64,000 nt of DNA from Candidatus Palauibacter sp. (GTDB lineage Bacteria; Gemmatimonadota; Gemmatimonadetes; Palauibacterales; Palauibacteraceae). Below the pieces are notes generated by a model. It saw only the letters and a list, made by a program, of their open reading frames with translations. It made no database searches and was not told the origin of the DNA. A program made the translations under genes and the position numbers. The stretch is from NCBI RefSeq assembly GCF_965221685.1, contig NZ_OZ244907.1; one strand, written 5' to 3'. Position 1 is the first letter of the stretch. Each line of letters opens with the position of its first letter. Shown here one piece after another: positions 45,776-63,571 of this stretch.

Positions 45776-47260
45776 TCACCTTGGCATGTGCAGCCGCTTG
45801 CCCTCGATTTCTGCTTCGCCCGAATCGAGGAAGGCGTTACACGCTTCGAGCTGCCGTTGGGTCTCGGCAATCGATGCCCAGTCGACCGCGATCGTCCAGC
45901 GCTGCGCATAATCGAGTGCACGAATCAGAGGTTCCGTGCGTTGGGTTCGCGACAACGCCCGTAGCGCGGCCAAGTAGTCGTCGCGGAAGACCGTCGGGAT
46001 GACGATCCGCTCTTCCCCTCCGGCCACGAGTTCCGCGTTCATCATCACCCGCGCCACACGTCCGTTGCCGTCCTCAAAGGGGTGAACCTCGCTGACGAGG
46101 AACATCATGTAGGCCGCGCGCTCAAAGGGCGATTCCAGACTGTGGTACAGGTCGAAGCCCTGCTCCAGTGTCCCGGGTACCAGTTCGGGAGCGACGAAGA
46201 TGGTTTGTCCAGCACGGTTCTGTCTTTCCTTGAACTCGCTAGGGCGCATCTCGGGGCGTCCCGCCATGATCTTCGCGTTGCGCTCACGCAGGAGACCGAG
46301 TAACGCCTCAAAATCCTTCGGCGTCCGACTCATTTCTTCTCTGTCCGAGACGAGACGCCAAGTACCGATCACATCCCTCGCGTCGGCTGGCCGGTGTCGC
46401 GGGATCGCGCCCTCGAAGACGATTTGGACCGCTTCATCGACCAGGAACTCCGTACCCTCGACGAAGTTCGAGAAGTACGCCTCAAAAAACGCCAGCGTCA
46501 CAGGCCCTGGAGCCTTGCGGTGAGGAGCTGGACGGTCGGTAGGAGGACGATCGCGAAGCGACTGATGCAGCCCGTGGAACAACTCCAGCCGATGGGGATC
46601 GTAGGCCCGCCCCCGACTGCGGGACCGCCCGACTCGCGAATCGAGTCGACTCTCCCGGGTGCCCAGCATAGCGCCGATCAGAGCCTGGAGGTCTGCGGCC
46701 TCCGTTTCCATATCGAGTTCAGAGGCTACTGCTCGGGCCTCGTCGCGGAGCCGGTTGGCGGCTTCTTCGCCCGAGACACGAATGAGACGATCAAGGTGCT
46801 CCTCAAGCTCCGTGCGCGTGAGAGTACGCGCGACACGGCCGCCCCGGGCTCGGGATGGACGAAGGTTCTCGAGATAAGCCCTGGGCCTGGAACTGAGGTA
46901 TAGCCCGTTGACAAAAGGTGTATCCGACGCAATTGACCCTGGCCCACGGCGAGGACGTAGCACGACTCCGGGCAATTCGGTCGTCCTCCCTCGCTCGCTG
47001 ACAAGGCAAACCGATCCATCGCTGGCGGGATCCGCTTCCAAAGCAGTGCGATCCGCGACCAGAGCACCTGGAAAGTACCCTGCGACGATTCCCCACAGGT
47101 TGCGCTTCACGATATCTTCGGGGTCATCGTCCAGGTTCTTGGTGTAGAGGCGAGACGCCAGTTTCCGGAGTTTCCCGGCCTTCATGGCCCGTGATACATC
47201 CCGGCTGATCGCCGTATGGGACACGAAGGCATCGGGCAATTCATCTAGTACACGGTTCAT
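45776..47260 (-). CDS. Fic-family protein (AMPylation/phosphocholination fold)
   Basis: Canonical Fic motif HPFEDGNGRVARVMMN. 494 aa with an extended N-terminal domain. Confidence 0.8.
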   Translation of the reverse strand: MNRVLDELPDAFVSHTAISRDVSRAMKAGKLRKLASRLYTKNLDDDPEDIVKRNLWGIVAGYFPGALVADRTALEADPASDGSVCLVSERGRTTELPGVVLRPRRGPGSIASDTPFVNGLYLSSRPRAYLENLRPSRARGGRVARTLTRTELEEHLDRLIRVSGEEAANRLRDEARAVASELDMETEAADLQALIGAMLGTRESRLDSRVGRSRSRGRAYDPHRLELFHGLHQSLRDRPPTDRPAPHRKAPGPVTLAFFEAYFSNFVEGTEFLVDEAVQIVFEGAIPRHRPADARDVIGTWRLVSDREEMSRTPKDFEALLGLLRERNAKIMAGRPEMRPSEFKERQNRAGQTIFVAPELVPGTLEQGFDLYHSLESPFERAAYMMFLVSEVHPFEDGNGRVARVMMNAELVAGGEERIVIPTVFRDDYLAALRALSRTQRTEPLIRALDYAQRWTIAVDWASIAETQRQLEACNAFLDSGEAEIEGKRLHMPR

Positions 47261-47829
47261 GGAATTATCTGCACGTTAAGGAGTCTGCCAAGCCTCGAAA
47301 TGAGAATTATCGTAACATAAGGAACCCAAAAAGCGAAAAAACCGGAGTTAACAGGAGCAAACGTTCCCGCGGGAACGTCGGATCGCCTAGGGCCTGAATC
47401 ACGGCAGGGAATCGTCTAACTACGTACAGGGCTGCACGATCTGCGTTTCCTGCCGTTGTACTGGACCTTGCTGGACCGTGCCGTGAAAGCGGGGAAAACC
47501 GGACCTGAATGGCGGGACTCCCACCCGCGTTGTCCTCGCCACCAAGGGTCCCAGAATGCTGTATGTGGACGCCCCCAGTTGGGCAAGCGCGGATTCAGAA
47601 CCGAGTTGGTGGCAGTGGGCCAGGTACTGTCGTATGTCCGGCCTCTTGATGCAGCGCTTGTTTGGCTGCGGGCCCGTATGGTGTGCGTGAGATCGGATCC
47701 AAATCGGCTTGGCGGGCTCATGAGGCCCTTCAGCATACACTGGTTTTTTCGATCCCGTCTTGTCGACCGTTTGCCCTTACCCGTTTCTCGTCCTGCTGCC
47801 CACACCTCCCCGACAGCGTCTTTGCTTTT

Positions 47830-48990
47830 CGGCTTTTTCTCCTTTCTCCGCCCGATCAGGCGGCAGTGCGAACCCGGTAGGTCTCCTTCTTCGTGGCCAG
47901 CGCCCAGACCGTCCGCGCCATCTTGTTGGCGAGCGCCACCGCCACCAGCTTCTTCGGCTTGCGTGCCAACATCCCGGCCAGCCACGGATCCGTGACGTCG
48001 CCGCGCCGGACCGCATGCGTGACAACGGTCATCGCTCCGGAGACCAGGAGCCGCCTGAGATCGCGTTGGCCCATTTTTGAGATCCGGCCCAGCCTCGGCT
48101 TGCCTCCGGTCGTGTGTTGCCGGGGCACGAGGCCGAGCTAGGCCGAGAAGTCGCGGCCGCGCCGGAAGCTCTCCATCGGCGGCGCGAAGGCCTGGATGGC
48201 CATCGCGGTGACCGGCCCGATGCCCGGGATCGTCATCAGGCAAGCCGTCTCTTCGTCCTCCCGTGCCCTCCGCAGGAATTCACGGTCGAGTCCGTCGATC
48301 TTCTCATCGAGCTCGTCGATCCGCCCAAACAGCAGCCAGCCCAGCTCGACGACCGCCTCCGGCAGGCCCGAGTCCCCGTCTTCGAGCACTGCGGCCAGTT
48401 GCCCGACCCGGGCTCTGCCTTTTGGAGCGACGATGCCGTACTCGACCAGGTGACCCCGAAGCGCGTTGATCGTCTGCGTGCGCTGGCGCGCCAGCAGGTC
48501 ACGCGTGTGAAAGAGCATCGGCTTGCTGCGCCTCCGTCTTGACCGCCACGAAGTGCATGGTCGGCCGCTCGGCCGCTTCCGTGATCGCCTCCGCGTCCGC
48601 CGCGTCGTTCTTCTGCCGCTTGACGAACGGCTTCACGTAGATCGGCGGAACCAGCCGCACCTCGTGGCCGAGCGCGGCGATCTCCCGGCCCCAGTAGTGG
48701 GCACCAGCGCACGCCTCCATCGCCACCGTGCAAGGCGGCTGCGAGGCGAGAAAGCTCAGCACCTTCCCGCGGCTCAGCTTCCGGCGGAAGGCAACCGACC
48801 CATCCGCCTTCGCCCCGTGCACCTGAAAGCTGCGCTTTGCCAGATCGATCCCGATGACGCTAACCTCTTCCATGTGGATGCCTCCTCCCTCAGATGGTCC
48901 GATTAAATCGCTCAGTACCATCTTGGCACATCGCGATGCCGTCGAGAGGGGGCGTCCACTCCATCGGCTTGTCTCCCATAATCATGCAGA
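47830..48990 (-). mobile_element. degraded IS110-family insertion sequence (boundaries approximate; this family has no terminal inverted repeats)
   Basis: Extent of the transposase remnants plus short flanks. Flanked by ~600-bp non-coding, lower-GC stretches on both sides. Confidence 0.4.
47856..48921 (-). pseudogene. IS110-family transposase, disrupted (one frameshift near 48499-48518 and one in-frame TAG at ~48138-48140)
   Basis: N-terminal DEDD_Tnp_IS110 block VIGIDLAKRSFQVHG...CTVAMEACAGAHYWGRE...KNDAADAEAI in ORF 48499..48921. Middle part MTIPGIGPVTAMAI in ORF 48138..48518 in another frame. C-terminal ORF 47856..48128 is in the same frame as the middle ORF but separated by an amber codon. 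Confidence 0.7.
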
Positions 48991-49543
48991 TTCCTGCGTG
49001 ATTTGCATGACCGGGTCGCGGGGAAGGCCCGGGCTTTTGAGCGCCCGCAGAGGCGAGCGTAGCGAGCCGGAGCGGGGCCAGCGGCGGGATGGAGGCCACC
49101 GATGCCGGGCCGTCCATGTACCCCTGAAGCCGGAGCGGCGACTGATTCCGCCAGCGCCCGCGGGGATCGACACGGGCATCAGTTCGGCTGTCGGTTGGAT
49201 CAACCTGACTACGCTTCTCCTCCGTCGTTTCGCCTCGTTTGGTCGTGCTGCCCTTCACGCTTCGGTGACCCGAAGGGCGACATCCTACGGATCTCATCCG
49301 CCGTAGGTTTCATTTTCGCTGGCCGACCAGTTGGAGTCCGAGGCACGGCGTTGCGAAGGAAATCGACTTGGCGGCGGGCAGTGGCGATCCCGGCGATACC
49401 AACGAAGGGCCGGTATGAGCATGCGACCGGGCGAGGGTAAGGGGACCCGACCGGCCTGCGGGCGGGACGCCGGGTTGCCAGAGAGCGACGGATTCTGTCC
49501 TACCTCATGGCGTTGTTCAGCGAGTTGGCCCATCTTTGTGGAC

Positions 49544-50776
49544 ATGTTCCCCCGGCAAGCCGGTCCATCGATTCCTGACGCCGCCGCGACCATAGCGGGT
49601 GTAGCCGATCGCCCACTGGTCGGCGCGGGCATTTATCTCGATTACGCCGCGACTACGCCTGTGGATCCGGCGGTCGCACGGGCGATGAGCGGTTTCCTCA
49701 CGATGGATGGCACCTTCGGGAACCCAGCCTCAGTGACTCACGGCTTCGGCCAGGCCGCAGCGGACGCGGTGGAGAATGCTCGACGGGAGGTCGCGGCCCT
49801 GGTTTCCTCAAGACCCGAAGAGATCATCTGGACCTCCGGGGCGACCGAGGCAATCAACCTTGCCCTGAAAGGATCGGCCCTAGCCCGTCGCGAGCGTGGC
49901 AGGCACATCGTTACCTCGCCCTTGGAGCATAGGGCAGTCCTCGATTCTGCGGAGTGGCTTGAGTCGCTGGGGTTCGAGATCGGCTATGTCGAGCTAGACG
50001 ATCACGGCAGAGTGACCCGGAAGGCTCTCTCGCGAGCGCTTCGACCAGACACCGTGCTCGTGTCTCTGATGCTCGTCAACAACGAGACGGGTACGATCAC
50101 CGACACCGCAGCGCTTGGCCCACTGATTCGTGAGCGGGGAGCACTCTTCCATGTGGACGCCGTGCAGGGCGCGGCGCGGCTACGCATGGACGACATCGCC
50201 ACTGCGGCGGATCTCGTCTCAATCAGCGGACACAAGATGTACGGACCGAAGGGGATTGGCGCGATCCGGGTTCGTATGCCTCTCCTAGGTGAGTTGGTTC
50301 CTCAAATGCACGGTGGCGGGCACGAGCTTGGGCTACGTTCAGGAACGCTGCCGACCCACCAGGTCGTCGGTATGGGCGAGGCCGCCAAGCTCGCTCGCGA
50401 GCACGGTGAGGCTGACGCGAAACACGTCACCTCCCTCGACCGAAAGCTGCGCGCACACCTAGACCGGATCAGGGGAGCGTCTTTGAACGGCAGCACTCCG
50501 CGACGCGTCCCCGGCATTCTCAACGTACACTTTGCGGATGTGGCGGCGGAGGCGCTGATGATCGGTCTCGGAAACGTCGCGATCTCATCCGGCTCAGCGT
50601 GCACCGCCGCAGAAGTACTGCCCTCTCATGTCTTGCTCGCACTCGGCCTTGGCGAAGAGAGAGCCCACTCTTCGGTCAGATTCAGCTTCGGTCGCTTTAC
50701 GACAATGGACGAAATCGATCACGTCGGATGGCTGCTGGCTGAGATCGTACCCGCGTTGCGGAAGCTATCGCGATGA
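49544..50776 (+). CDS. cysteine desulfurase, IscS/NifS class (DndA/SspA-like)
   Basis: IYLDYAATTP N-terminal block, SGHKMYGPKGIGA (PLP lysine), SSGSACTAAEV (active-site Cys). Stop overlaps the next start (ATGA). Confidence 0.8.
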   Translation: MFPRQAGPSIPDAAATIAGVADRPLVGAGIYLDYAATTPVDPAVARAMSGFLTMDGTFGNPASVTHGFGQAAADAVENARREVAALVSSRPEEIIWTSGATEAINLALKGSALARRERGRHIVTSPLEHRAVLDSAEWLESLGFEIGYVELDDHGRVTRKALSRALRPDTVLVSLMLVNNETGTITDTAALGPLIRERGALFHVDAVQGAARLRMDDIATAADLVSISGHKMYGPKGIGAIRVRMPLLGELVPQMHGGGHELGLRSGTLPTHQVVGMGEAAKLAREHGEADAKHVTSLDRKLRAHLDRIRGASLNGSTPRRVPGILNVHFADVAAEALMIGLGNVAISSGSACTAAEVLPSHVLLALGLGEERAHSSVRFSFGRFTTMDEIDHVGWLLAEIVPALRKLSR

Positions 50777-51963
50777 GCGTGTCCGCAACCTCGCCTACCA
50801 GTGTGGGGACCCTGCCGAACCGCATCGAGGCTGTCAAGGACGTGATTCGCTCGGAATACCAGGAGACGCACCGCTATCCATGGCTCGTCGCCTACTCCGG
50901 TGGGAAGGATTCCACCTTGCTCCTACAGTTGGTGTGGGAGGTAATTGCCGATCTCCCGCCCGACGCGCGACAGCGCCGCGTGCTGGTCGTTGGCAACGAC
51001 ACACTCGTCGAATCCCCCCTAGTCATCGAGCATCTCCGCGATTCGCTCAAGGAGATTGGGTCCGCCGCAGGGGAGCAGGGACTTCCCATCGAGACGAAGA
51101 TCACCGTACCGTGTATCGACCAGACATTCTGGGTGAGCGTCATCGGTCGCGGGTACATCCCTCCCACGCGCAATTTTCGCTGGTGTACCGACCGGATGAA
51201 AATTCTGCCCACTACCCGCTTGCTCAAACGTATCACTCGCAGCGCCAAAGGGTCGGTGCTCCTGATCGGAACGCGACGGGCGGAGTCGCAAAACCGTCAG
51301 CGTGCGATGAACAAACGAGAAGTGTCCGCTAGTCAGTTGAACCCGCACGGCAAGGTGGACGGCTGCTGGATGTTCGCACCTCTTGCGGACCTAAAGGACA
51401 ACGACGTGTGGATGATGCTCATGCAACACCCGGCACCCTGGGGTAAATCCCACCGTCGGCTGATCACCCTCTACCGTAACGCTGGCGGCGGCGAGTGTCC
51501 GCTGGTCATCACGAAGGAACAGGCTCCGTCTTGCGGGAGTTCGTCGCCGCGCTTTGGATGTTGGACGTGCACGGTTGTCCAGAAGGACCGCAGCCTCCGT
51601 GGGCTCATCGACTCCGGATATGCGGATACGGCACGAATGGAAGCGCTGTTCGATTTCCGCGAGTGGTTAATTGAAATGCGGGAGAGCGACACGAACCGTC
51701 TCCCCGTGCGTCGGGACGGCAACGTCAAGCGCCGGAAGGACGGGTCTCGCATCTATGGCCCGTTTACGCTCGCTGTGCGGAAGGAAATACTCAACAGGCT
51801 CCACAGACTCGAAGAGCGAATCGGCAAACGGCTCATTCTCCCAGCAGAGATTGACTCCATCGAAGATGTCTGGTGGCGCGACGAAATCCGCGAAGACGCG
51901 CGGCTCGCGCTTGAGCGCAGCATCGTGAACGAGGATCCCGAACCGGTCTTGGAGACGGCGTGA
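50773..51963 (+). CDS. PAPS-reductase-family ATP pyrophosphatase, DndC/SspD-like (putative DNA sulfur-modification enzyme)
   Basis: PP-loop VAYSGGKDST. Cys cluster GGGECPLV...SCGSSSPRFGCWTCT as in DndC-type proteins. 396 aa; ATGA overlap upstream, GTGA overlap downstream. Confidence 0.65.
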   Translation: MSVSATSPTSVGTLPNRIEAVKDVIRSEYQETHRYPWLVAYSGGKDSTLLLQLVWEVIADLPPDARQRRVLVVGNDTLVESPLVIEHLRDSLKEIGSAAGEQGLPIETKITVPCIDQTFWVSVIGRGYIPPTRNFRWCTDRMKILPTTRLLKRITRSAKGSVLLIGTRRAESQNRQRAMNKREVSASQLNPHGKVDGCWMFAPLADLKDNDVWMMLMQHPAPWGKSHRRLITLYRNAGGGECPLVITKEQAPSCGSSSPRFGCWTCTVVQKDRSLRGLIDSGYADTARMEALFDFREWLIEMRESDTNRLPVRRDGNVKRRKDGSRIYGPFTLAVRKEILNRLHRLEERIGKRLILPAEIDSIEDVWWRDEIREDARLALERSIVNEDPEPVLETA

Positions 51964-53735
51964 CTAGAATTCAATCGGAAGTAAGACTCCTCTTTCGCGT
52001 TCTGTGCTCGGCTCACTTCGAGGTGCCTTGGCACCAGCGCCACTACGACTGGACGGTGCAGGAGGTCGGCGATCTTCTCGAGGATCTGATGGACGCGCTC
52101 GATTCCGACAAGACTTGTTACTTCCTCGGCTCCATCATGCTACTCAAGCCAACCGGTGCCGCGCCGTGGAGGATCAACGACGGACAGCAACGGCTGATCA
52201 CATTCTCTCTGCTCATGGCGGCCTTCTGCCGCCGCTTCTCCGAAGAAGAGCCCCGTGATACTTGGCGCGAGACATCGGCGCTCCGCGCCCTGTTCGACCG
52301 CAACGAGAACGAAATCTCTCGCTTGGACGATGCGCACCAATATACGCATCGGATCGCGCCTCCGAAGGACAATAGGCGCATGTACACCCAGCTCCTCCAC
52401 GGTCACGACATCGGCAGCAACGGACTTATGACAGCTGCCTGGAACAAGATCGATGACTTTGTCGACTGCATGGACAGAGAGACGAGAGAGGCATTCTTCG
52501 ACTTTCTGCTGACGAAGTTGGAAGTCTCGGTTCTAACCGTTCCCGGAGATGTGGACGCTAACAGCGTGTTTGAGACGCTCAACGCCCGCGGTAAATCGCT
52601 GAGCGATGTCGACCTTATTCGGAACCTGCTGTACTCGTGTTTTTCGGAAATCGATGACACCGCGCGGCGAAACGCCGTGCACGCCAACCTCCAGAGCACG
52701 AGTGTCATCCTCAACACGAAACCGAAGGTCTCAGAGTACTTCCGCTGTTACCTGCAATGCCGCTATGGCTTCTTGCGAAAGAAGCGATTCTACCGCGAGT
52801 TCTGGAAGAAAACGCAGCACACGATACGCGGTGCCGCGTCCACCGACTACGCCTACAGCCTCGTAGCCGGCTTGGGGCGCCCGGAGAGTACATGGCTGTT
52901 CCAGACGATCATCTCTGCGAAACCGAGCCAAGCCCTTGAAGGGCGATTGCCGACGGTCTCCGGTAAACGCGATCTCGCCGTACTCCTCCGCGAACTCCAG
53001 GGATACAAGGTCTCGCATCCGCTCTGCTTCGCCTTGCTCCACCGGTTCATGGCCGAGAGCAGTGCAGCGAAGAAGAGAGCAGTGGGAAGGGTGGTCGGGC
53101 GCAGCTTGAAGAATCTTACATCATACATCATGAGAGCGGCCTTTGTGACCTCGACATTCCGGCCATCGAGAATCGAGGAACCCTTGGCGATGTGCGCCCA
53201 GAACGTGTTCGTGGGCACCGATTTCCGGTCGCTCGACATCATGGCCGAGTTGGAAGGAAACGACCCATTCGGTGTCGTTGACGACGCGAGCTTCATCCGG
53301 CGCATGACCGACATGGAACTACGCAGCAACAACCGATCCAGCAATCAGAAGGCGCTACGGTATCTGTTCGGCATCAATGCCCAACAGCAGAGAGGATCCG
53401 ATGCTCTGCAAATCGGCGGCTGTAGTGTCGAGCATGTGTTACCGCAGTCGGAAATGTACTGGCCGAGTTGGACTGGATTCAAAGGCGAGAATCCAGCAGC
53501 GTGGGTCCACCGGACAGGCAACTTCGTAGTTGTATCTCGCCGGGAGAATCGGGGTGGGTTCGAGTTCAACGCCAACTTCGCCGCCAAAAGGCGAGCCCTT
53601 GCGGAGAGTCCGCTGTTGATGGCAAGGAACGTAGCAGAAGACCACGAAGAGTGGACCCCTGCGGCCATCGAGAAACGCTCGGAACAGCTTGCTGTAGCGG
53701 CCGCTGGGATATGGACATTCCGCCGTGGGAACTGA
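51960..53735 (+). CDS. DUF262-DUF1524 two-domain nuclease (SspE/GmrSD-like, probable modification-sensing NTPase + His-Me finger nickase)
   Basis: N-terminus VPWHQRHYDWTVQEVGDLLEDL and the INDGQQRLITF (DGQQR) DUF262 signature. C-terminus GGCSVEHVLPQS...GNFVVVSRRENRGG...FNANFAAKR DUF1524 HNH-like motif. 591 aa. Confidence 0.75.
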   Translation: MTRIQSEVRLLFRVLCSAHFEVPWHQRHYDWTVQEVGDLLEDLMDALDSDKTCYFLGSIMLLKPTGAAPWRINDGQQRLITFSLLMAAFCRRFSEEEPRDTWRETSALRALFDRNENEISRLDDAHQYTHRIAPPKDNRRMYTQLLHGHDIGSNGLMTAAWNKIDDFVDCMDRETREAFFDFLLTKLEVSVLTVPGDVDANSVFETLNARGKSLSDVDLIRNLLYSCFSEIDDTARRNAVHANLQSTSVILNTKPKVSEYFRCYLQCRYGFLRKKRFYREFWKKTQHTIRGAASTDYAYSLVAGLGRPESTWLFQTIISAKPSQALEGRLPTVSGKRDLAVLLRELQGYKVSHPLCFALLHRFMAESSAAKKRAVGRVVGRSLKNLTSYIMRAAFVTSTFRPSRIEEPLAMCAQNVFVGTDFRSLDIMAELEGNDPFGVVDDASFIRRMTDMELRSNNRSSNQKALRYLFGINAQQQRGSDALQIGGCSVEHVLPQSEMYWPSWTGFKGENPAAWVHRTGNFVVVSRRENRGGFEFNANFAAKRRALAESPLLMARNVAEDHEEWTPAAIEKRSEQLAVAAAGIWTFRRGN

Positions 53736-55161: not shown

Positions 55162-55960
55162 CATCCCCCTCGACGAGTTGGTCATCGGCATGGGGCAAGT
55201 CCGGACTCAGAGTCCTGGCAAGGGAATCGACGACCTAGTGAGGAGCATCGAGGCCCAAGGGCTGCTACAGCCCATTGTCGTGTGCCCCGCGAGGGACGAG
55301 GGCAAGTGGGAGATCCTCGTCGGACAGCGCCGTTTCCTCGCGCACAGACTGCTGGAAAGGGAGTCGATTGCCGCAGCCGTTCTGGACGAACGGGTAAGCA
55401 GCGGCGAGGCCAAGGCCATCTCCATCACGGAAAACCTGATTCGACGGCAACTCTCCGGGACGGAGCTGAAGGACGGCATTCTCTATCTCTACAACCTGTA
55501 CGGGAGCTTGAAGGATGTGGTGGAGGCCACTGGCCTGCCGTACAGCAAGGTGCGAGACAACGTAAAGTATCCCCGCCTTATCCCGGAGTTGAAGACACTT
55601 GTCGACGATGGTAAGGTCGATGTCAATGCGGCCGTAAAGGCGCAGGACGCAGCTAGCGATGACCACGGTAATGTCAAGTCGGGCGATGCCATCATCCTAG
55701 CACAGGCGATGGTACCCATGTCAGGGGTCCAGAGGAAGAAGGTAACCAAGGAGCGGAAGGAACGCCCGGAGAGGCCGGTGGAGGATGTGATCGAGGACGC
55801 TACAACCGGATCGAGGGTCACTCAGATCGTCGTGACGGTAACCCAGGACACACGCGCGGCCCTACAGAGGTTTGCAAGGGAGGAAGGAACAAACCAGGAC
55901 GAGGCAGCCGCAACACTCATTGAGGAGGCTCTGACGGGGCGCGGCCTTCTCGATGACTAG
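55136..55960 (+). CDS. ParB-like protein (ParB N-terminal nuclease/CTPase fold + HTH)
   Basis: LQPIVVCPARDEGKWEILVGQRRFLAHRLL (GxRR box II region) and ISITENLIRRQL. HTH LKDVVEATGLPYSKVRDNVKY. Basic/acidic C-terminal tail. Overlaps the SNF2 gene by 26 nt. Confidence 0.7.
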   Translation: MAKILEYRDIPLDELVIGMGQVRTQSPGKGIDDLVRSIEAQGLLQPIVVCPARDEGKWEILVGQRRFLAHRLLERESIAAAVLDERVSSGEAKAISITENLIRRQLSGTELKDGILYLYNLYGSLKDVVEATGLPYSKVRDNVKYPRLIPELKTLVDDGKVDVNAAVKAQDAASDDHGNVKSGDAIILAQAMVPMSGVQRKKVTKERKERPERPVEDVIEDATTGSRVTQIVVTVTQDTRAALQRFAREEGTNQDEAAATLIEEALTGRGLLDD

Positions 55961-56678
55961 TCTGGCCGGTCTGAACGCGTTGGAATTGGGGCGCTTGCGG
56001 ATGTCCGTAGGATATGGGACGCACAGAAGCGGGCGGCCCCTGTCACCAGTGGAAGTCGGTGCGCTTCTTCATAACGCCCGGAAGAACGGAGCCTCGCTAA
56101 CGGACTGTGCAGAGGCAGCGCAGCTTCATAGCACGGGTATTCGTCGCTTTCTGCGTATTCTGGACCTCCCGTCTGATCTTCTGCATTTGATCGATTGGGG
56201 TTCCGGCAAGGACTTTGTCGGGTTCTCCGCTGCGGTGGAAACCACGAAGCTGACAGACTCCGACGATCAGCGTGCGGTCGCCGCTGCGATACTGGCAAGC
56301 AACCTCAGTAGCAAAGAGGTCAGGCAGGTTACTCAACTGCGGCAGCGGTCAGGACGCCTCATCGAGGAGTGTGTACAGGAAGTTCTTAGGATGCGCCCAA
56401 CAGTTGTAAGGCGCTATGTTTTCATTGGCTCCGTTGCATCCGAAAACATGGAAGAGCTGCGGGCGCTTGCGCAGTCGGCTAGGGATTCGATGTTGGCGAC
56501 AGGTATCGAGAAGATTGGCCTTGAGAGCGCGACTGGTCGGTTGGGAGTGAGGTTCTTCACGCTCGTTGGTGACGAGCGGTTCAACGCCTCTTTGCGTGAA
56601 ATCGGCAAGGAAGCGATTGAGGCACAGCTTCGGACTCACGTTTCGCGGGCCGTGATCGATGCCACATCGGACGGTTGA
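55953..56678 (+). CDS. ParB-type HTH domain protein lacking the N-terminal ParB box (paralogous partner of the preceding gene)
   Basis: LSPVEVGALLHNARKNGASLTDCAEAAQLHSTGIRRFLRILDLPSDLLHLIDWG resembles the ParB/KorB central HTH region. Overlapping start/stop on both sides. Confidence 0.45.
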   Translation: MTSLAGLNALELGRLRMSVGYGTHRSGRPLSPVEVGALLHNARKNGASLTDCAEAAQLHSTGIRRFLRILDLPSDLLHLIDWGSGKDFVGFSAAVETTKLTDSDDQRAVAAAILASNLSSKEVRQVTQLRQRSGRLIEECVQEVLRMRPTVVRRYVFIGSVASENMEELRALAQSARDSMLATGIEKIGLESATGRLGVRFFTLVGDERFNASLREIGKEAIEAQLRTHVSRAVIDATSDG

Positions 56679-57681
56679 CGTATTCGATAACGGTGCCGTG
56701 CGCCTCGGAGCGAACACGGTGTGCGACGGCTATGCGATGGGCTATGCCTTCCGGGTTCAGTCGCACCTGCACGATGACCACATGGCCGAGTTCGACAAGA
56801 GCAAAGGCGAGCAGGATCTGTTCATGAGTCCAGAGACCCGCCGACTGCTGATTGCCGAGCGGAACGACGATCTTGAGTATCGGGACAACCTCATTCCGCT
56901 GGGACGTGGTATACAGAGAGAACTCAACGATGGTTCCAAGCTTACGCTCCTTCCCTCGGGCCACATGCTCGGATCGTGCCAGGTAGCCCTCGAATTGTCT
57001 AGCGGTATCCGTTGCGGCTATTCGGGCGATTTCGCTTGGCCACTGGACGATGTGATGCAGGTTGACGAGCTGGTCGTGGACAGCACCTACGGAAGCCCTG
57101 CGAGCGTCCGACGTTACACACAAGATGAGGCCGAAAGCTGTCTTTTGGAGGTGGTGTGCCAAGCTCTTCGCCGCGGGTCTGTGCATGTCAAGGCTCACAG
57201 AGGAACCATTGAGCGCGTGCTGCAAGTTGTCGCTGGCAATGTCGGCGTTCCGGTCTTGGCTAGTGCGCGTTTGATCGCCGAAGTCGAGGTATATCGGGAT
57301 CATGGGTTCGGAGCGGAGGAATTGGTAGCGTTGGACTCGGACATAGGGCGCGCCGTGCTGGAGGAGCGGTCCTATGTCCGCCTTTACTCTAAGGGAGACT
57401 CCTTCGGCAACGAGCTGATCGAAGGCACGAGCATTACGTGCAGCGCGTACATGGTGAACACCGACCATCCGCTGCTCCAGTTTTCGGAACGGGCATACCG
57501 GGTGGCTCTATCGAACCACGCGGACTTCGAGGGGACCTTGGCGTATGTGGAGGCTACGGGAGCCCAAAGGGTTGTGACTGACAACACAAGAAGCCACGGA
57601 GTAGACCTGGCCATTGCGATCAACAACCGCTTTCCGGACATCCGCGCCGAACCGTCTACGAACGGCCCTGTGCCGTCCTGA
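56659..57681 (+). CDS. metallo-beta-lactamase-fold hydrolase (putative nuclease)
   Basis: HLHDDHM (HxHxDH) motif plus downstream His/Asp ligands. 340 aa; overlaps the upstream gene by 20 nt. Confidence 0.7.
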   Translation: MPHRTVDVFDNGAVRLGANTVCDGYAMGYAFRVQSHLHDDHMAEFDKSKGEQDLFMSPETRRLLIAERNDDLEYRDNLIPLGRGIQRELNDGSKLTLLPSGHMLGSCQVALELSSGIRCGYSGDFAWPLDDVMQVDELVVDSTYGSPASVRRYTQDEAESCLLEVVCQALRRGSVHVKAHRGTIERVLQVVAGNVGVPVLASARLIAEVEVYRDHGFGAEELVALDSDIGRAVLEERSYVRLYSKGDSFGNELIEGTSITCSAYMVNTDHPLLQFSERAYRVALSNHADFEGTLAYVEATGAQRVVTDNTRSHGVDLAIAINNRFPDIRAEPSTNGPVPS

Positions 57682-58651
57682 GCCCCCCTGCTTCGTGGAA
57701 AGAAACAGGGTCTTCTAGCCCAGCATCGCGTTGCCGTGAGGCGTGGCCTGAAGCGGAGAGCGATTCCCGCAAATTGAGGCGGTTTCCCCGCTGTTCCAGC
57801 GCTGCGGGAAGAGATACGGTTCAAGGGCAAGAAACGCGGATCCGCGTCCGAACTCGAATCCCAGGCCCGTACCCACGATCAGGCGGTCATCGATCCAGAT
57901 GAGATTGTGGACCACGGCACCCACGTCTTCCGGTCGGCCGGAGAGTCCCGCGACCCTAGGCGACATCGAGCGCTTGTTCCTTGACTCCGAGTTGAGGAGG
58001 CACCGGTTCCAGCCCCACGCCACGGTCTCGGACGCCTACTGGCTTCGCTCCGTCCCGGACGCGCGCGCGGTCACCTTCAAGCCGGCCGTGTTCGAACGTC
58101 ACCCGTCCACGGTGGAGCTACTCACCTACGGGAACCCCACCTTCAACGATCTGTTGCTCGAAGTCGCCGAGCCGGACGGCGACGACTCCTCTGACACCGC
58201 GGCCGCTGAAGCCGGAGCGGCTCTCGTGCTGCACGATCCCGGACCTCCGCCCGTCGCCGTCTGCGTTGTCAAGGAAGAATGCCGATCTCTCCACCGTCGC
58301 AAGTGTTGCCGATTACCGGACGGCGGCGCAGCAGGGGGATGTCGCTTGGTCCGATTCGGACAGGAAACGCGCGTTCGCCGTGCTTCGCGAAGCGCGCGCC
58401 CGCGTGGAGGAGGAGGCCGCTACGGTCTCGCGTCGAATGCGGGGGCCAAGCTGCGCGGCCTGCGCGAGGAGGCTCGCCGGATTCTCATCGAGAGCGCGCA
58501 CATCGTCGAGGCCCGGGATGGGTTGTTCGCCGGCAACGGCTTCGACCGCCTCTTGAAGCGGGGAGTGCCGTATCCCGGCCTCATCACGGTGGCCAGCGGC
58601 AGCATGCCCTCCATGATTGCCACGGATACCCCATTGGGTTACCATGATTCC

Positions 58652-58990
58652 ATGCAGACCGTTGCCGAGACACCCACCTTCTCCCGTCAAGCCGACAAGC
58701 TCTTCAACGAGGACGAGAGACGCGAACTGATCGACTACCTGGCCGAGCATCCCTTGGCAGGGGACGAGATCCCCGGCACCGGCGGGGTCCGAAAAATGCG
58801 ATTCGGAGCGTCGGGGCGCGGTAAGCGAGGTGGTGCCCGCGTGATCTATTTGTTCGGGGGCGAAGGAATGCCGATCTACGCGCTTCTCGCCTACGCGAAG
58901 TCCGACAAGACCGACCTGACTCCCGGCGAGCGCCGAGCGGTGGCCGCGCTCGCAGCCGCCATCAAACTCCACGGAAGGCAGAGGAAATGA
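58652..58990 (+). CDS. HigB-2/Gp49-family (RelE/ParE-superfamily) toxin
   Basis: GTGGVRKMRFGASGRGKRGGARVIYLFGGEGMPIYALLAYAKSDKTDLT matches the Gp49/HigB-2 pattern. ATGA overlap with the downstream HTH gene (toxin-first order). Confidence 0.7.
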   Translation: MQTVAETPTFSRQADKLFNEDERRELIDYLAEHPLAGDEIPGTGGVRKMRFGASGRGKRGGARVIYLFGGEGMPIYALLAYAKSDKTDLTPGERRAVAALAAAIKLHGRQRK

Positions 58991-59271
58991 GCACGTTCGG
59001 AGAAGACCTGATCCAGTCCTTGAACGAGGCCTTGGACCATGCCAAGGGGGAGGGTCCCGCCATCGTTCACGCCCCGATCTCCCCCCGCGAGGTTCGGATA
59101 GAGGCGAGGCTGACGCAGATTCAAATGGCGGCCCTGATGGGAATGAGCCTGTCTGGCTACCGAAAGTGGGAGCAGGGGAGACGACGTGTCAGCGGCCCGG
59201 CAGCGGCGCTTCTGCGCATCATCAAGCACGATCCCAACGCTGTGAGGCATGCATTGGTGCCGTCGCCATGA
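58987..59271 (+). CDS. XRE-family HTH antitoxin (HigA-2-like)
   Basis: EVRIEARLTQIQMAALMGMSLSGYRKWEQGRRRVSGPAAALLRII is an XRE HTH. 94 aa. Confidence 0.7.
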   Translation: MSTFGEDLIQSLNEALDHAKGEGPAIVHAPISPREVRIEARLTQIQMAALMGMSLSGYRKWEQGRRRVSGPAAALLRIIKHDPNAVRHALVPSP

Positions 59272-59498
59272 GCAGGAGAATGCTCTGGCAGGCGCGGTTG
59301 AGGAAGAGGATGCGCCGACGGACGCGGCGGAGCGCCTGTCGGCCTCGCCGGTGGGGGAAGCGTGAGCCCAGCGGGTGAGCCCGCCGCATCTTGGGACCGG
59401 ATGCCGGGTCCGAGTACGGAGTCGCAGGTGGATGCGTACCGCACGGCTTGAACGAGCGCGCCGACGACCTCGAATGACCTCGAAATCGACCGCTTGGA

Positions 59499-59618
59499 TT
59501 CCCGCCGTTAACCACTGCATTCCGGCCATTCGAGACGGTCGAATCCGATTGGGCTTCAACGGCAGAAGTGGCGGATCGTTGTAGCCCTAGTTAGACTTAC
59601 GTGATCTCCTACCGTGAT
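59499..59618. repeat. ~120-bp imperfect direct repeat, copy A
   Basis: Shares with copy B a conserved 5' block TTCCCGC.G.TTA.AACC.CTGCATTCCGGCCATT.GA and a 3' block AGTGGCGGATC...TTAGACTT.CGTGAT.TCCT..CGTGAT around a ~32-nt variable core. Contains hairpin ATTCGA-gacgg-TCGAAT. Confidence 0.5.
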
Positions 59619-59682
59619 TCGTCGCCTTGGCATTCTGCGTTTCCACTTGGCTCCCCCCCTGAAGCTGGCCCCTTTCAACGAG

Positions 59683-59976
59683 TCAGTAATGACCCCGAGC
59701 TCGGAGGAACTTGACTTCCCCGTTCGTAGCTTTGTAAAGCAGGCGATTCTTCTGGTCGATCCTCCGCGACCACTGACCGGACCGATCACCAGAGAGGGCT
59801 TCGGGTTTCCCCCTACCGGTGGCTAGGTCTCGGCACGCTTCCGAGATCAGCTTCAGGATGTGATTGCACTTCTTGGGGTCCTTCTTCGACCAGTACAGCA
59901 GATCCTTCAAGCAGTGCTTATGGAAGAGGGAGTCCCTAGGTTTTTCTGTGACCACTCCGCTTTCTTCTGTGGTCAC
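59683..59976 (-). CDS. yoeB: YoeB/Txe-family toxin
   Basis: KDLLYWSKKDPKKCNHILKLISEACRDLATGRGKPEALSGDRSGQWSRRIDQKNRLLYKATNGEVKFLRARGHY is co-linear with YoeB, including the C-terminal HY. Confidence 0.8.
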   Translation of the reverse strand: MTTEESGVVTEKPRDSLFHKHCLKDLLYWSKKDPKKCNHILKLISEACRDLATGRGKPEALSGDRSGQWSRRIDQKNRLLYKATNGEVKFLRARGHY

Positions 59977-60257
59977 TCCTCAGCAAGACCGAGAAAATCT
60001 CGGAGCTCATCAACGCTCATTCGTACATACGACTCGCGATCTTCGATCGCCTCTCGCAAGGCATTAGCGTTCTCCGGATACGAGAGACAAAGTGTCTCTC
60101 GCGAGCCTGAGTCTAGCTCGGCGGGTACGGCGACCGGCCCGCCTGCTTCGGTGCCATCAGCGCGCCACTCGCCTTCTGGTGCAGTCCCGGCGACCGAGCC
60201 AAGCACGAATCCTACAACGCTGGCCGTGGCGGCCGAGCTGCAGTTGAACGTAGTCAT
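59973..60257 (-). CDS. YefM-like antitoxin with atypical/possibly disrupted N-terminus
   Basis: C-terminus ETLCLSYPENANALREAIEDRESYVRMSVDELRDFLGL matches the YefM C-terminal toxin-binding region. The N-terminal 50 aa do not resemble the Phd/YefM fold. 4-nt overlap with yoeB. Confidence 0.45.
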   Translation of the reverse strand: MTTFNCSSAATASVVGFVLGSVAGTAPEGEWRADGTEAGGPVAVPAELDSGSRETLCLSYPENANALREAIEDRESYVRMSVDELRDFLGLAEE

Positions 60258-60258
60258 G

Positions 60259-60669
60259 TCACCAACCCTCCTGTGACGCCCGCTCGTTTAGCATGGCGAT
60301 AAGGCTACGCAGCGCCGACTCCTGTAGGACGAATCGACCCCGCACATGAACGGGGACGGTCCCCATCTTTTCAACCTCCGCACGCTGCTCCTTAGGCGTT
60401 CCTAAGACGAGAGGAAAGGGAGCGTGTCCAATCACCAGCTGGAACTGGTTATCGACACGCTGCAGGATGAACTGGTCAGCGGCAACAGCGGGTGAGCCAT
60501 CGTCGTTCCATCGCAAGCCGACTTGGATGGTTGCTTCTTCGTGCTCGCGCGGCTTGTCGTTCTTGCGTGGCATGTAAGAACCGCTTGCTTTGAGGTGTGG
60601 TTTGGTATTCTCGTCCCCCCATCCACCGGTGTTCACAACATCGGGGAACGATAGCGAGCCGCGTTCCAT
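60259..60669 (-). CDS. hypothetical protein
   Basis: ORF 60259..60729, internal Met chosen. No recognisable motifs; moderate codon bias. Confidence 0.3.
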   Translation of the reverse strand: MERGSLSFPDVVNTGGWGDENTKPHLKASGSYMPRKNDKPREHEEATIQVGLRWNDDGSPAVAADQFILQRVDNQFQLVIGHAPFPLVLGTPKEQRAEVEKMGTVPVHVRGRFVLQESALRSLIAMLNERASQEGW

Positions 60670-61305
60670 GCGGCAACATCCCGGCACAAGCCAATACGAG
60701 CCTAGCGCGCGGCTAGTTCCAGCCCACACCTAGGCCAGAACGTAGCCAGTACGTAGCGCCCAGTCGCCATCTCGGAGACGCCGCCGGTCGATCCCGGCGA
60801 ACGACCGTATCTTGGCCAAGGGATCCGCGGGCTTCCGCTCGGCGGTCTCCAGCGCCGCTAGATACTTGTTCCTTCTGAGCCCTCCCCCGGATCGCCCTCG
60901 GACGCGTCCCCCGCTCGCGATAAGCTCGCGTCGCCTCACGAGCCGCCGGGAAATGGCGGGTGCATCTGGTTCGCCCGTCTTCAGGCGGATCGGTGCATTC
61001 AGATTTGATGGACGCACAGACCGGCCGCCCTCCGTTCGGCGTAACGATATCGTCGGACACCCGATGCGCTAGGGAGATCGATAGCCGGGATTCTTCGGCA
61101 GGTATCGCCGAGTCCGCGCCTTTCCTGCACGGCCAGATGGCGAGCGCATGGGGGGCATCGGTGGAGCAGCGGGTCGAGTACCGTGGCGGCCAAGAGGTCA
61201 TGGCCACCACGGTACTCGACGGCTTCTAGCAGCTAGTCGCTCCATGTAACCTCCATGAAGGCCGATGGTCGGCCTCACCGGGCGTCCACAGAGACTGGGT
61301 AGAAA

Positions 61306-61425
61306 TTCCCGCTGCTTATAACCGCATTCCGGCCATTTGACGATGATTGAGTCGGATACATGTACAACAGCAATAGTGGCGGATCATGCAGTCCTGATTA
61401 GACTTGCGTGATTTCCTGTCGTGAT
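61306..61425. repeat. ~120-bp imperfect direct repeat, copy B
   Basis: See copy A. The same orientation, 1.8 kb downstream, bracketing the yoeB/yefM-like module and the hypothetical ORF. Confidence 0.5.
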
Positions 61426-61471
61426 ATGAGCGTCAGGTGATCCGCATACTCCTTGTACATGTACCGATACT

Positions 61472-61903
61472 TTAGTCGACAGGTGTCCGTTTCTCGAGGG
61501 CAAGTTCGGCGAGTAAGGTGGATGCTCGTGCAATGATTCGGAGGGCTGCCGTCGATACCTCGTCAGATATTCCTCCTCTGTGCGTGACGAACCATAAGAA
61601 GCTGCGATCCTTTGCACTCCACGTTCCTTCCAGCTCTTTTTCGGCAATCCGCTTGAGTAGACGCGCCGCTTGCTCCTTTTCGGTAGATGCAATCCTGTCC
61701 GCTGCAATCAACTTGATCAGCCGCTCCTTGATCCAATCGAGCACTTCCTCATCGTTCGGGGTAGCCACGCCTCCTCCAGGTTGACCTTCCGTAGTCACTT
61801 CGATCTTCTCGTTGCCCATCGGGTGCAATCCGTCCTCACCATGTCCCTGCCATCCCTCTTCGATGGTTACCTCAATAGCCGGCGGCATCTGTGCGTCGTC
61901 CAT
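61472..61903 (-). CDS. hypothetical acidic protein
   Basis: Internal Met of ORF 61472..62038; no recognisable motifs; lower-GC region. Confidence 0.3.
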   Translation of the reverse strand: MDDAQMPPAIEVTIEEGWQGHGEDGLHPMGNEKIEVTTEGQPGGGVATPNDEEVLDWIKERLIKLIAADRIASTEKEQAARLLKRIAEKELEGTWSAKDRSFLWFVTHRGGISDEVSTAALRIIARASTLLAELALEKRTPVD

Positions 61904-62434
61904 CGTCGGATCCCTCCGTACTTCTATCAGACAAAGCTTGTTCCGTTTTTTCAGTGTTCCATCGTAATGCGGGCGGTGCCGGATGTCACCCGGCACCGGT
62001 AACCGGTTGGTACGCTTCGGCAAGCCGACGGGCACCAAACAGGAGGGGATTCGGCGGCCACCCGTCCGCGGCGATCTGTCAACCGAAACCGAAGATGTGG
62101 CGGGTCCGCAACTGCTGCGGGATAGGTGAAGTGCCGTCGTCGAGACGGGTCCTCAGTTGACACAGATGAGGCGGTGTCGGCGGCGTTTCGCAGCAAGTCG
62201 GACGCTGATAGTCCTGTGATGTCCGGTGTCGTCTATTAGCAGTTCGTAACATCCTTTATCCTCAACGCTTTAGGTAGGAATCCTCCTACCTCCTCCGTCC
62301 AGCGACGGTCCTTGCCATCCCGCTCCATCCCAGATACAATTAGGGGATAGATAATGTGAACAGAAACCCCACGAAACGCCCGCGAGGCACAGCCCAGCGG
62401 CCGCCATCCCTACAAGCGGCTCTCGGCCCCCTTC

Positions 62435-63571
62435 GTGCGCTCCGCTCCGCCCGGTCGGCACTGCGACGGGAACGGACTTTACCTCTACGTCCAGAAGACC
62501 GGAACCCGAAGCTGGATTCAACGGCTCGTCATCCGGGGCCGCAAGCGCGAGCTCGGACTCGGCAGCGTCGAACTGGTCTCTTTGGCCGAAGCCAGGGAGC
62601 AGGCGCTCGCCAACCGCAAGCTCGCCCGTTCGGGCGGCGATCCCTTGGCCGAGAAACGGCGGCTGGTCGGCATCCCCACCTTTGCCGAGGCCGCCAAGCG
62701 TGTCGTCGAGCAGAAGCGGGCCGGGTGGCGGAGCGCGGCCTACGCCAAGGAGTGGTTCCGTAACTTGGAGATTCACGCCTTCCCCCGCATCGGGGATGTG
62801 GCCGTCTCGGAGGTCACGAGCGGCGACGTGTTGGACATCCTCACCCCCATCTGGCACACCAAGGCTCCCACGGCCCGGTTCGTCCACATGCGGGTCCGGG
62901 CGGTCTTGGAATGGGCCATCGCCATGGAATGGAGGACCGACAACCCCTGCGACTGGATCCTTCACCTGCTCGGCCCGCAGCACGATGTCGTCACCCACCA
63001 CAAGGCCCTGCCTCACGGCGAGGTCGCCGACGCCATCGGGAAGGTGCGGGCTGGGGAGCCGGAGAGGGTGGACACGTTGGCCTTCGAGTTCCTCGTGTTG
63101 ACGGCGGCGCGGGGCGCCGAGGTCCGTGGCGCGGTGTGGAGCGAGATGGATGAACGCTCGGGTGTTTGGACGATCCCCGCAAGGAGGATGAAGACCGGGC
63201 GCGAGCAGCGGGTGCCGCTGTGCGGGCGGGCGCTGGTGATTCTGGAGGCGGCCCGGAAGCTGGAGGGCGGGAAGAACCCGGTCGTGTTCGTGAACGAGCG
63301 CGGGAGGGCGTTGGACGGGAAGCGGCTGAACCGGCTGTTGAGGAAGCACGGGATCGCGGCGGTGCCGCACGGGTTCCGGTCGTCGTTCCGGGACTGGGCG
63401 GCGGAGAGGACGGATCATCCACGGGAGGTGGTCGAGGCGGCGCTGGCGCATGTGGTCAAGAGCAAGGTCGAGGCCGCCGACCGGCGCACGGACCTGTTCG
63501 AGCGGCGTCGTCGGCTCATGGCCGACTGGGAAGCGTATCTCGCGGGCCGGAGAGCGGGCACCGGAACCTGA
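62435..63571 (+). CDS. int: P4/CP4-57-type tyrosine integrase (Arm DNA-binding domain DUF4102-like + catalytic core)
   Basis: HCDGNGLYLYVQKTGTRSWIQRL Arm-type N-terminal motif. Catalytic R...HxxR...Y region (LTAARGAEV, HGFRSSFRDWAAE, AHVVKSKVEAAY-like). First usable start is a GTG inside the conserved N-terminal motif. Confidence 0.85.
   Translation: MRSAPPGRHCDGNGLYLYVQKTGTRSWIQRLVIRGRKRELGLGSVELVSLAEAREQALANRKLARSGGDPLAEKRRLVGIPTFAEAAKRVVEQKRAGWRSAAYAKEWFRNLEIHAFPRIGDVAVSEVTSGDVLDILTPIWHTKAPTARFVHMRVRAVLEWAIAMEWRTDNPCDWILHLLGPQHDVVTHHKALPHGEVADAIGKVRAGEPERVDTLAFEFLVLTAARGAEVRGAVWSEMDERSGVWTIPARRMKTGREQRVPLCGRALVILEAARKLEGGKNPVVFVNERGRALDGKRLNRLLRKHGIAAVPHGFRSSFRDWAAERTDHPREVVEAALAHVVKSKVEAADRRTDLFERRRRLMADWEAYLAGRRAGTGT

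Follow-up and report, generated by a model that had tools for sequence, protein, structure and literature searches.

A layered accessory region beside a gcvT-like gene in a Palauibacter-like bacterium, probably a recombination hot spot, and its seven-gene DNA-sulfur cassette

The window analyzed here is a whole stretch of 64,000 nt from a contig of Candidatus Palauibacter sp. (NZ_OZ244907.1; assembly GCF_965221685.1). From 45.64 kb to its end it consists of genuine foreign accessory DNA of the defense-island or hot-spot kind, which is well delimited on the left. We consider this region to be probably a layered recombination hot spot of a Palauibacter-like, sponge-associated bacterium, located between an aminotransferase class-V gene and a gcvT-like gene and filled with horizontally acquired modules. 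The site is unusually well resolved, as its empty, one-module, and many-module states are joined at the same nucleotide. As an island the region is ordinary, and its interest resides in its main cargo, a strictly conserved and widely distributed cassette of seven genes in which sulfur-insertion enzymes of the Dnd type are combined with wholly different partners. An initial annotation, made from the sequence alone, had proposed an accessory defense island rich in defense, toxin-antitoxin (TA), and mobile-element genes. This proposal is supported here, and the island is missing at this site in the closest relatives.

Layers at the insertion site

The left flank of the block is a core gene encoding a gcvT-like aminomethyltransferase (44488 to 45636, minus strand; Pfam GCV_T and GCV_T_C), which has homologues of 98% and 90% identity on metagenome contigs and further homologues of 75 to 83% identity that are labelled Gemmatimonadetes. 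The search of relatives for an empty site that the initial annotation had recommended was successful. In locus L081, where the gcvT product is 98% identical at the amino acid level, the DNA is collinear with window positions 34589 to 45636 at 92% nucleotide identity, and the homology ends at the gcvT start codon. Here the aminotransferase class-V gene is followed by about 95 nt and then by gcvT, so that the site is empty, with a compact intergenic region and no scar. A second relative, L093, was found via its Fic gene and is 89% identical to the window in its core DNA. Its positions 4408 to 7885 match positions 6362 to 9853 of L081 at 87%. In L093, gcvT is followed by Fic, only a 1.7-kb Fic module lies between the aminotransferase gene and gcvT, and the match to the window ends at 47379. 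In the window, the site holds the Fic module and at least 16.6 kb more, joined at that same nucleotide (47379|47380). Two more distant relatives, L082 and L083, have other content beside gcvT.

The junctions can be followed base by base. The aminotransferase stop region ...CCCGCCTGACG(G/T)T is common to L081 and L093, all three sequences have ...CCCGCCTGACGkT, the Fic module is common to L093 and the window from GACGTT on, and the window diverges at 47380. Beyond that point the window has a copy of a repeat (rep47, described below) where L093 has the aminotransferase gene. The aminotransferase gene was not found in the window at either the DNA or the protein level, and the right junction must therefore lie beyond 64 kb. 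Taken together, an empty site in L081, Fic in L093, and Fic plus the DNA from 47380 onward in the window point to the L081 arrangement as the ancestral state, and the base-level junctions indicate that the second layer was added exactly at the outer edge of the first. The idea that two islands are stacked here is therefore correct insofar as there are at least two layers joined at one nucleotide, but the split runs between Fic and the rest and not, as had been supposed, between the seven-gene operon and a TA/integrase module. Nor can Fic serve as the left edge marker of the same island, as it is a separate, older module that is shared with L093.

This first layer (45690 to 47379, minus strand) contains the Fic gene (45776 to 47260), a promoter-like site (47264 to 47291), and a palindrome, AACGTTCCCGCGGGAACGTT, that ends at 47379. 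It is common to the window and L093 at 77% nucleotide identity and is missing from L081. The Fic protein matches Pfam Fic (1.4e-13), has the motif HPFEDGNGR, and also matches PDC-S04 of PADLOC, whereas the PADLOC match to SoFic (1.7e-14) is only partial, covering positions 58 to 237 of 361. No family was assigned to its first 250 aa. The family has more than 549 full-length relatives and no conserved neighboring gene, and the Fic gene is solitary in 80 loci.

A 20-nt perfect palindrome, ACGTTCCCGCGGGAACGT, is present at 47360 to 47379 of the window, at 7882 to 7901 of L093, and at 2521 to 2540 of L001. These are three exact copies in 2.46 Mb, with none in reversed-sequence controls. It occupies the start of foreign DNA at two unrelated sites, immediately behind the stop codon of a core gene of high GC content. 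One is the site of the aminotransferase gene in L093 (the window has the palindrome, but rep47 replaces the gene), and the other follows a gene of 829 aa in L001, where the closest integrase relative is 1.4 kb away.

Composition and extent of the block

GC content was determined in 1-kb windows, and groups of these were compared by the Mann-Whitney test. The mean is 0.699 ± 0.018 in the core from 7 to 45 kb (n = 38) and 0.608 ± 0.028 in the block from 45.64 to 62.6 kb (n = 17), a highly significant difference (P = 5e-9). The GC content at third codon positions (GC3) ranges from 0.84 to 0.92 in six core genes, compared to 0.60 to 0.76 in the cargo genes of the block; individual values are 0.91 for the gcvT-like gene, 0.61 for the hypothetical gene h188, and 0.74 for the hypothetical gene ORF121. 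Within the block, the integrase gene (0.88) and the pieces of an IS110 insertion sequence (IS) (0.81 to 0.85) have host-like values. The change in composition and the lower third-position GC that had been noted initially are thus borne out: GC and codon usage are not uniform, as the block departs from the host core in both, and the block is not kept as a whole in the relatives, the site being empty in L081 and holding only Fic in L093.

The limits of 45776 and 63571 that had been assigned to the block need revision, although the change itself is real. The block starts at 45637, at the gcvT start codon, and it does not end at 63571, because the DNA from 63588 to 64000 still has an island-like GC content of 0.646 and ORF121 has the GC3 given above. 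Intact open reading frames (ORFs) occupy 73% of the block, or 81% when the IS is included. The five long noncoding stretches that had been listed are real, and six-frame Pfam scans of the two largest revealed no recognizable gene remnants. No tRNA, transfer-messenger RNA (tmRNA), or Rfam family was detected in the window.

The seven-gene cassette

The candidate defense operon of seven genes seen in the initial annotation was confirmed by Pfam, PADLOC, and NCBIfam. It forms a cassette of 8.2 kb (49494 to 57686, plus strand), the genes of which are translationally coupled with overlaps of 4 to 26 nt. The first gene, dndA (49544 to 50776), encodes a cysteine desulfurase of the DndA/SspA type (PADLOC, approximately 1e-138). 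The product of the second, dndC (50773 to 51963), scores 346 bits with TIGR03183 against a cutoff of 290, matches the PADLOC DndC model at 9e-113, and has the PP-loop motif SGGKDS and a Cys-rich C-terminal region. The third gene (51960 to 53735) encodes a DndI/SspE-like DUF262-DUF1524 nuclease (Pfam GmrSD_N and GmrSD_C) that matches PADLOC Orf5 (5.9e-45) and also HEC-06. It combines a DUF262 domain carrying the DGQQR motif with a C-terminal DUF1524 HNH domain carrying EHxxP (VEHVLPQ), the domain layout of nucleases that sense phosphorothioate (PT), such as SspE and DndI, and it is therefore a putative member of this class. Its sole match in the PDB is 9JFL, a PT-sensing DndI (PMC11662687), and PADLOC Orf5 presumably corresponds to DndI. 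The four remaining genes encode a compact SNF2 helicase of 478 aa with intact GxGKT and DEAQ motifs (53725 to 55161; PADLOC DpdE models, 1e-57), a ParB protein with a GxRR motif (55136 to 55960; Noc/Spo0J, 1.5e-12), a ParB-HTH protein, ParB2 (55953 to 56678), and a beta-CASP/MBL nuclease of 340 aa (56659 to 57681), which has the HxHxDH motif in the form HLHDDH and matches TIGR04122 (9.6e-15) and, in the PDB, CPSF/FttA (approximately 1e-6).

The cassette is found far beyond this site. The beta-CASP protein has 1,259 homologues at an E value of ≤1e-5, and the top 120 of these are 67 to 93% identical to it. The full order of seven genes, with the same sizes, recurs in six contexts (L084 to L086 and L089 to L091), and there is a partial copy in L092. 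These cassettes have unrelated flanks and no integrase or IS nearby; at 68 to 80% nucleotide identity, they appear as sharply bounded low-GC inserts in unrelated high-GC contexts. Their DNA homology to the window cassette extends from 49494/49628 to 57682/57686, beginning about 50 to 100 nt before dndA and ending at the last stop codon, and no terminal repeats are present at the cassette edges. One homologue of ParB2 comes from a metagenome-assembled genome (MAG) of the Bacteroidota.

Four PT systems are established, namely dnd, ssp, tdp, and brxPCZL, and tdpC alone suffices for modification (PMC12914056). To judge from its predicted gene content, the cassette matches none of these four, and it is both widespread and undescribed. 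Our literature search found the seven-gene architecture nowhere described, the nearest mention being that of uncharacterized neighborhoods with dndC, a P-loop protein, and DUF262 (PMC12914056). Searches of the cassette with PADLOC, NCBIfam, and Pfam detected none of DndB, DndD, DndE, SspB, SspC, BrxC, PglZ, and BrxL. Compared to the strong PADLOC match of DndC, the matches to SspD (2.5e-5) and BrxP (2.7e-13) are weak, and so is that to the N-terminal part of SspE (6.7e-12). The Dnd components present are DndC and a desulfurase of the DndA/IscS kind; the DndD-DndE pair, which is the co-evolving core of Dnd (PMC10853773), was not found, although the closest plasmid DndC genes (45 to 48% identity) adjoin DndD and DndE. 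The set of SspB, SspC, and SspD that defines Ssp and the set of BrxC, PglZ, and BrxL with BrxP that defines BREX type 4 are not present either.

The cassette resembles Dnd, which consists of DndABCDE with DndFGH or DndI (PMC11662687, PMC10853773), in its DndA-type desulfurase, its DndC above the cutoff, and its DndI-like nuclease; it differs in having no DndB, DndD, DndE, or DndFGH and in having SNF2, ParB, ParB-HTH, and beta-CASP proteins instead. With Ssp, BREX type 4, and Tdp it has in common the combination of a sulfur inserter of the PAPS-reductase family, an NTPase, and a putative effector of the kind that senses or is blocked by PT, and Tdp shows that modification can be achieved with one DndC-like enzyme (PMC12914056, PMC12839542). 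Unlike Ssp and BREX type 4, it has no SspB, SspC, BrxC, PglZ, or BrxL. There is also a likeness, by analogy only, to the Dpd 7-deazaguanine system, where a DNA-modifying enzyme is likewise accompanied by a ParB-type protein and an SNF2-type helicase. In Dpd, these are the ParB-like NTPase DpdB and the SNF2-type helicase DpdE, next to the TGT-like DpdA. The Dpd chemistry is different, the cassette has no TGT-like DpdA, and its ParB matches no PADLOC Dpd model.

From the domain content, DndA would hand sulfur to DndC for thiolation of the DNA backbone. ParB, ParB-HTH, and the SNF2 motor would, by analogy with DpdB and DpdE, take care of targeting and translocation in place of DndD and DndE, and unmodified DNA would be attacked by two nucleases, the DndI-like HNH enzyme and the beta-CASP protein. 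We tentatively propose that the cassette may be a fifth architecture of PT-based immunity, in which SNF2, ParB, and ParB-HTH replace DndD/DndE or SspB/SspC, and that it is self-contained, has no mobility genes, and crosses phyla (Gemmatimonadota and at least one Bacteroidota MAG). We regard this as a possibility that falls somewhat short of an even chance, and a point that speaks against the proposed mechanism is that the cassette has no counterpart of DndD or SspC, the ATPases that scan DNA. If the cassette does make PT DNA, it would extend the known ways of targeting that modification, and as a compact operon that moves as a unit it would be easy to test.

The integrase near the right end

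The presence of a P4-type tyrosine integrase gene near the right end of the window, as initially annotated, is confirmed by all three Pfam domains (Arm-DNA-bind_3, Phage_int_M, and Phage_integrase). The module (62189 to 63587, plus strand) is inactivated and contains a promoter-like site (62312 to 62340) and a residual ORF (62435 to 63571). Among GTDB species representatives, the integrase has 206 relatives, mostly labelled Gemmatimonadota, Longimicrobiales, or Candidatus Palauibacter, with a few in MAGs that are otherwise labelled. We compared its neighborhood at 80 related loci from GTDB genomes (L001 to L080). DNA homology at these loci is limited to 62189/62310 to 63530/63587, that is, to the gene and 120 to 245 nt upstream. 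This 1.4-kb module is 90 to 92% identical between species, and its surroundings are all different. The family is multicopy, with six or more members in single Longimicrobiales genomes and tandem pairs in L005, L007, L010, and L052.

Three lesions affect the window copy. In 33 relatives the gene begins at ATGGATAATGTG (MDNVNRNPTKRPRGKPRG...), mostly encoding about 400 to 410 residues. In the window, the start codon is lost by a change of ATG to ATA at 62347 to 62349, an extra C near 62390 causes a 1-nt frameshift that leaves the first 29 residues out of frame, and the catalytic Tyr is replaced by Asp (TAC to GAC, 63479 to 63481), so that EAAYRRTDL of the relatives reads EAADRRTDL. The Tyr is present in all 92 aligned relatives, and the R, H, and R residues are conserved in the window copy. 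The integrase is predicted to be dead, i.e., unable to catalyze recombination, and is a member of the P4-type family by descent and not by function.

A tRNA gene lies directly upstream of the integrase gene and in the same direction only in L004 and L021. This is the canonical order, in which the island follows the integrase, and the integrase gene is read there away from the tRNA and toward the interior of its element. At 38 of 55 loci, the downstream side of the integrase has a modestly lower GC content than the upstream side (P = 0.002). MobC and a relaxase accompany it in 20 of the 80 loci, and homologues of ORF121 are found just downstream of it in L025 and L066. ORF121 itself (63600 to 63965, minus strand) has an island-like composition, no family match, and no relatives in a metagenome scan. 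The Fic gene, the TA genes, h156, and h188 were found at none of the 80 loci, and no left-hand cargo gene ever occurs with the integrase. Neither the flanks of the integrase nor any of six candidate regions of the window were found to share an att-like direct repeat with the left junction above chance, and in L004 and L021, the tRNA-adjacent loci, a search over 10 kb gave no such repeat of at least 14 nt. Viral collections contained no relatives of either the integrase or the beta-CASP protein, and there is hence no link to a phage or satellite.

Three further candidates were rejected. This integrase family does not repeatedly target the 3' end of the aminotransferase gene, which was found at none of the 80 loci. 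The short box GGNATYCCCGCC, considered as an att core or arm site, was dropped because its 16 matches (7.5 expected) are scattered through the core. A second degraded integrase at 60.7 to 61.2 kb, hinted at by an inverted repeat (I1), found no support by tblastn or six-frame Pfam scans.

The insertion sequence and the hairpin repeats

The degraded IS110 element of the initial annotation is indeed present (47558 to 49076, minus strand). It is a discrete element with a DEDD transposase (Pfam DEDD_Tnp_IS110, PF01548, and Transposase_20, PF02371) and with sharp ends when compared to a copy in L020, which is 93% identical and has one intact ORF of about 340 aa. Relative to that copy, the window element has a 5-nt deletion at approximately 48520, and its transposase is further split, resulting in three ORF pieces and an inactivated gene. 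It is inserted beside rep47.

The repeat to which rep47 belongs is about 120 to 150 nt long. A TCCCGC box is invariant in it, and a hairpin, ACGGCAGG...CCTGCCGT, is conserved, with one pair that covaries between GC and AU (6:6) and a second with compensatory changes. The window contains three copies, i.e., rep47 at the start of the second layer (47380 to 47533, minus strand; about 150 nt, with the hairpin), rep59 (59498 to 59618, plus strand), and rep61 (61305 to 61425, plus strand), which is 74% identical to rep59. Copies elsewhere are found in L033, L035, L041, L046, L052, and L055 (at approximately 9643 to 9763), in L015 (6384 to 6480), and in L004 (13175 to 13318). The repeat is located directly upstream of the integrase module in seven loci, and it also occurs away from any integrase, as well as upstream of the homologous cassette in L090. 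Rfam gave no match at the gathering threshold or at an E value of ≤1. Candidate roles for the repeat are those of an arm region of the integrase, an operator, or a small RNA. This hairpin repeat of about 150 nt beside a multicopy integrase may be the arm or recombination site of the latter.

Two other noncoding features were noticed. The spacer between IS110 and the cassette (49068 to 49312) shows 79% identity to a stretch of L034 (16941 to 17187) that precedes mobC and may be a remnant of the backbone of a mobilizable element or of an oriT region. Between h156 and rep61 there is a 48-nt near-perfect palindrome (61173 to 61220), with 23-nt arms that are 91% complementary and a 2-nt spacer.

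Assembly of the region

In a layered hot spot, a solitary Fic gene with its own promoter would have arrived first. The second layer, i.e., the DNA of at least 16.6 kb from 47380 onward, was joined to the first exactly at its outer edge and is itself a mosaic. Its parts are a dead IS110, an autonomous 8.2-kb cassette of presumed PT modification and restriction type, two putative type II TA units, orphan genes, and a P4-type integrase, the decayed member of a lineage-specific multicopy family. This integrase probably delivered one later module, most likely one that extends rightward with ORF121, and decayed afterwards, and the decay of both the integrase and the IS would leave the region now fixed in place. 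Like defense islands and hot spots at core genes in general, the region places foreign DNA between two conserved genes, its contents vary from relative to relative, and it combines systems of the restriction-modification (R-M) type, TA pairs, an IS, and an integrase. It differs from them in that its layers are joined at one nucleotide without detectable att repeats and in that the resident integrase and IS are dead.

Several points weigh against this interpretation. No att repeats were found for any layer. The polarity of the integrase is not uniform, as in L055 the arrangement is the opposite of that in L004 and L021 and the integrase reads toward a tRNA that is 1.1 kb away. The MobC and relaxase genes lie on either side and either strand of the integrase. 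The 1-nt frameshift in the integrase gene could be an assembly error, although the changes of ATG to ATA and of TAC to GAC are independent of it. Finally, because the right junction lies beyond the window, the whole of the DNA from 47380 onward could have been delivered as a single composite.

Among the alternatives, the one that survives best, although we consider it unlikely, is that the second layer is the inner part, now decayed, of a large integrative mobilizable element from the family to which the element at 1 to 6.1 kb of the window (described below) belongs, with the repeats as leftover arm or attL regions of tandem elements from which the integrases were deleted. The location of the repeat directly upstream of the integrase in seven loci would fit such an origin, as would the spacer at 49068 to 49312 with its likeness to a mobC-upstream region, the tandem integrases, and the 20 loci with MobC and relaxase. 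However, no integrase remnant was detected beside rep47, rep59, or rep61, rep47 is inverted relative to the other two, and the repeat is also found apart from any integrase. The comparison with known elements of this kind goes both ways. MobC and an MbeA-like relaxase come after integrases of this family in L004 and at further loci, and the left end of the window carries that backbone with EcoRII-type R-M and Vsr cargo, whereas the block from 45.6 to 64 kb has no relaxase or MobC and at most 245 nt that resemble the mobC-upstream region.

Clearly less probable is the model of the initial annotation, according to which a single classical genomic island was delivered by the P4-type integrase at its right end, reading outward, with the att partner just past 64 kb. 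The three-domain integrase, the low GC content over the whole block, and the one clean left junction of the second layer are all compatible with it, and L055 shows that outward-reading copies exist. Yet Fic is a separate, older module common to L093, the cassette and IS110 are independently mobile units, and the cargo genes accompany the integrase in 0 of 80 loci. Neither attL/attR repeats nor a functional recombinase at one end was found within the window, and neither was a tRNA; the composition remains island-like past the integrase, and the expected flank gene lies outside the window. A right boundary of the island at the integrase is therefore not borne out, given also the three lesions, the direction of reading away from the tRNA in L004 and L021, and the ORF121 homologues that follow the integrase elsewhere. 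As there is no shared cargo, no att repeat, and island-like DNA beyond it, the integrase is neither the boundary nor the demonstrable vehicle of the left-hand block, which cautions against reading an integrase gene found at the edge of a low-GC block as either.

In Escherichia coli, islands with P4-type integrases occupy tRNA-type sites, such as CP4-57 at ssrA and P4 at leuX. The window integrase has the same three-domain architecture, and in L004 and L021 its relatives immediately follow a tRNA that has the same orientation. Unlike those islands, the window has no tRNA or att duplication, its integrase is situated inside foreign DNA and has lost its start codon and catalytic Tyr, and the family to which it belongs has six or more copies per genome.

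Differential loss, in which the block would be ancestral and deleted in L081 and L093, is very improbable, although only two close relatives inform on the site and L082 and L083 show that the neighborhood is generally fluid. Relative to the core, the GC content is reduced by 9 points and the GC3 by about 20 points, and an IS, an integrase, and TA genes are among the contents of the block. In unrelated contexts of high GC content, the cassette (68 to 80% nucleotide identity) stands out as a low-GC insert with sharp boundaries, and the intergenic region of L081 is compact, at 95 nt, and has no scar.

Other genes of the second layer

The gene identities proposed in the initial annotation are supported by Pfam, PADLOC, and NCBIfam for all but one gene, the YefM-like gene of the second TA unit. 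The first unit is a toxin-first pair (58652 to 59271, plus strand) with a promoter-like site at its start (58617 to 58645). It consists of a RelE/HigB-like toxin (58652 to 58990; Pfam RelE, PF06296) and an XRE/NadS-like antitoxin (58987 to 59271; Pfam HTH_3), of which the match to NCBIfam NadS (9e-10) is below the cutoff. The second belongs to a three-gene unit on the minus strand (59683 to 60729). Its YoeB toxin (59683 to 59976) is well supported (Pfam, 6.8e-25; TIGR02116, 75 bits against a cutoff of 51.8). Upstream of YoeB, with a 4-nt overlap, lies the YefM-like gene (59973 to 60257; 94 aa), for which no hidden Markov model of Pfam or NCBIfam gave a match, so that its assignment follows from its position and a YefM-like C-terminal motif. 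A frameshifted YefM was considered and rejected, as no alternative frame has a better N terminus. The third gene of the unit encodes the hypothetical protein h156 (60259 to 60729), with no match in any library. A further hypothetical gene, h188 (61472 to 62038, minus strand), has no match in Pfam, PADLOC, NCBIfam, or PHROGs.

Features outside the block

A second low-GC patch is present at the left end of the window (1 to 6.1 kb) and resembles the end of an integrative mobilizable element. Within positions 1 to 6100 there are a small ORF (177 to 512), a MobC-like gene (896 to 1333), and a gene for an MbeA-like relaxase (1323 to 2846), and the cargo comprises a Dcm-type C5 methylase (3081 to 4205), an EcoRII-C nuclease (ORF 4043 to 5491), and Vsr (5437 to 6045). 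Homologues of this MobC and relaxase directly follow integrases of the family described above in L004 and at further loci, which suggests that the integrase belonging to the patch may sit just left of the window. A gene for a leucine-rich-repeat (LRR) protein adjoins this left-end island (6190 to 6852). LRR genes are also found beside the cassette in L089 and L090 and beside gcvT in L081 and L083, a placement that is consistent with the clustering of eukaryote-like proteins of sponge symbionts in variable regions. In the core, a direct duplication of about 440 nt (20304 to 20739 and 21131 to 21566; 66% identical) probably represents paralogous gene segments.

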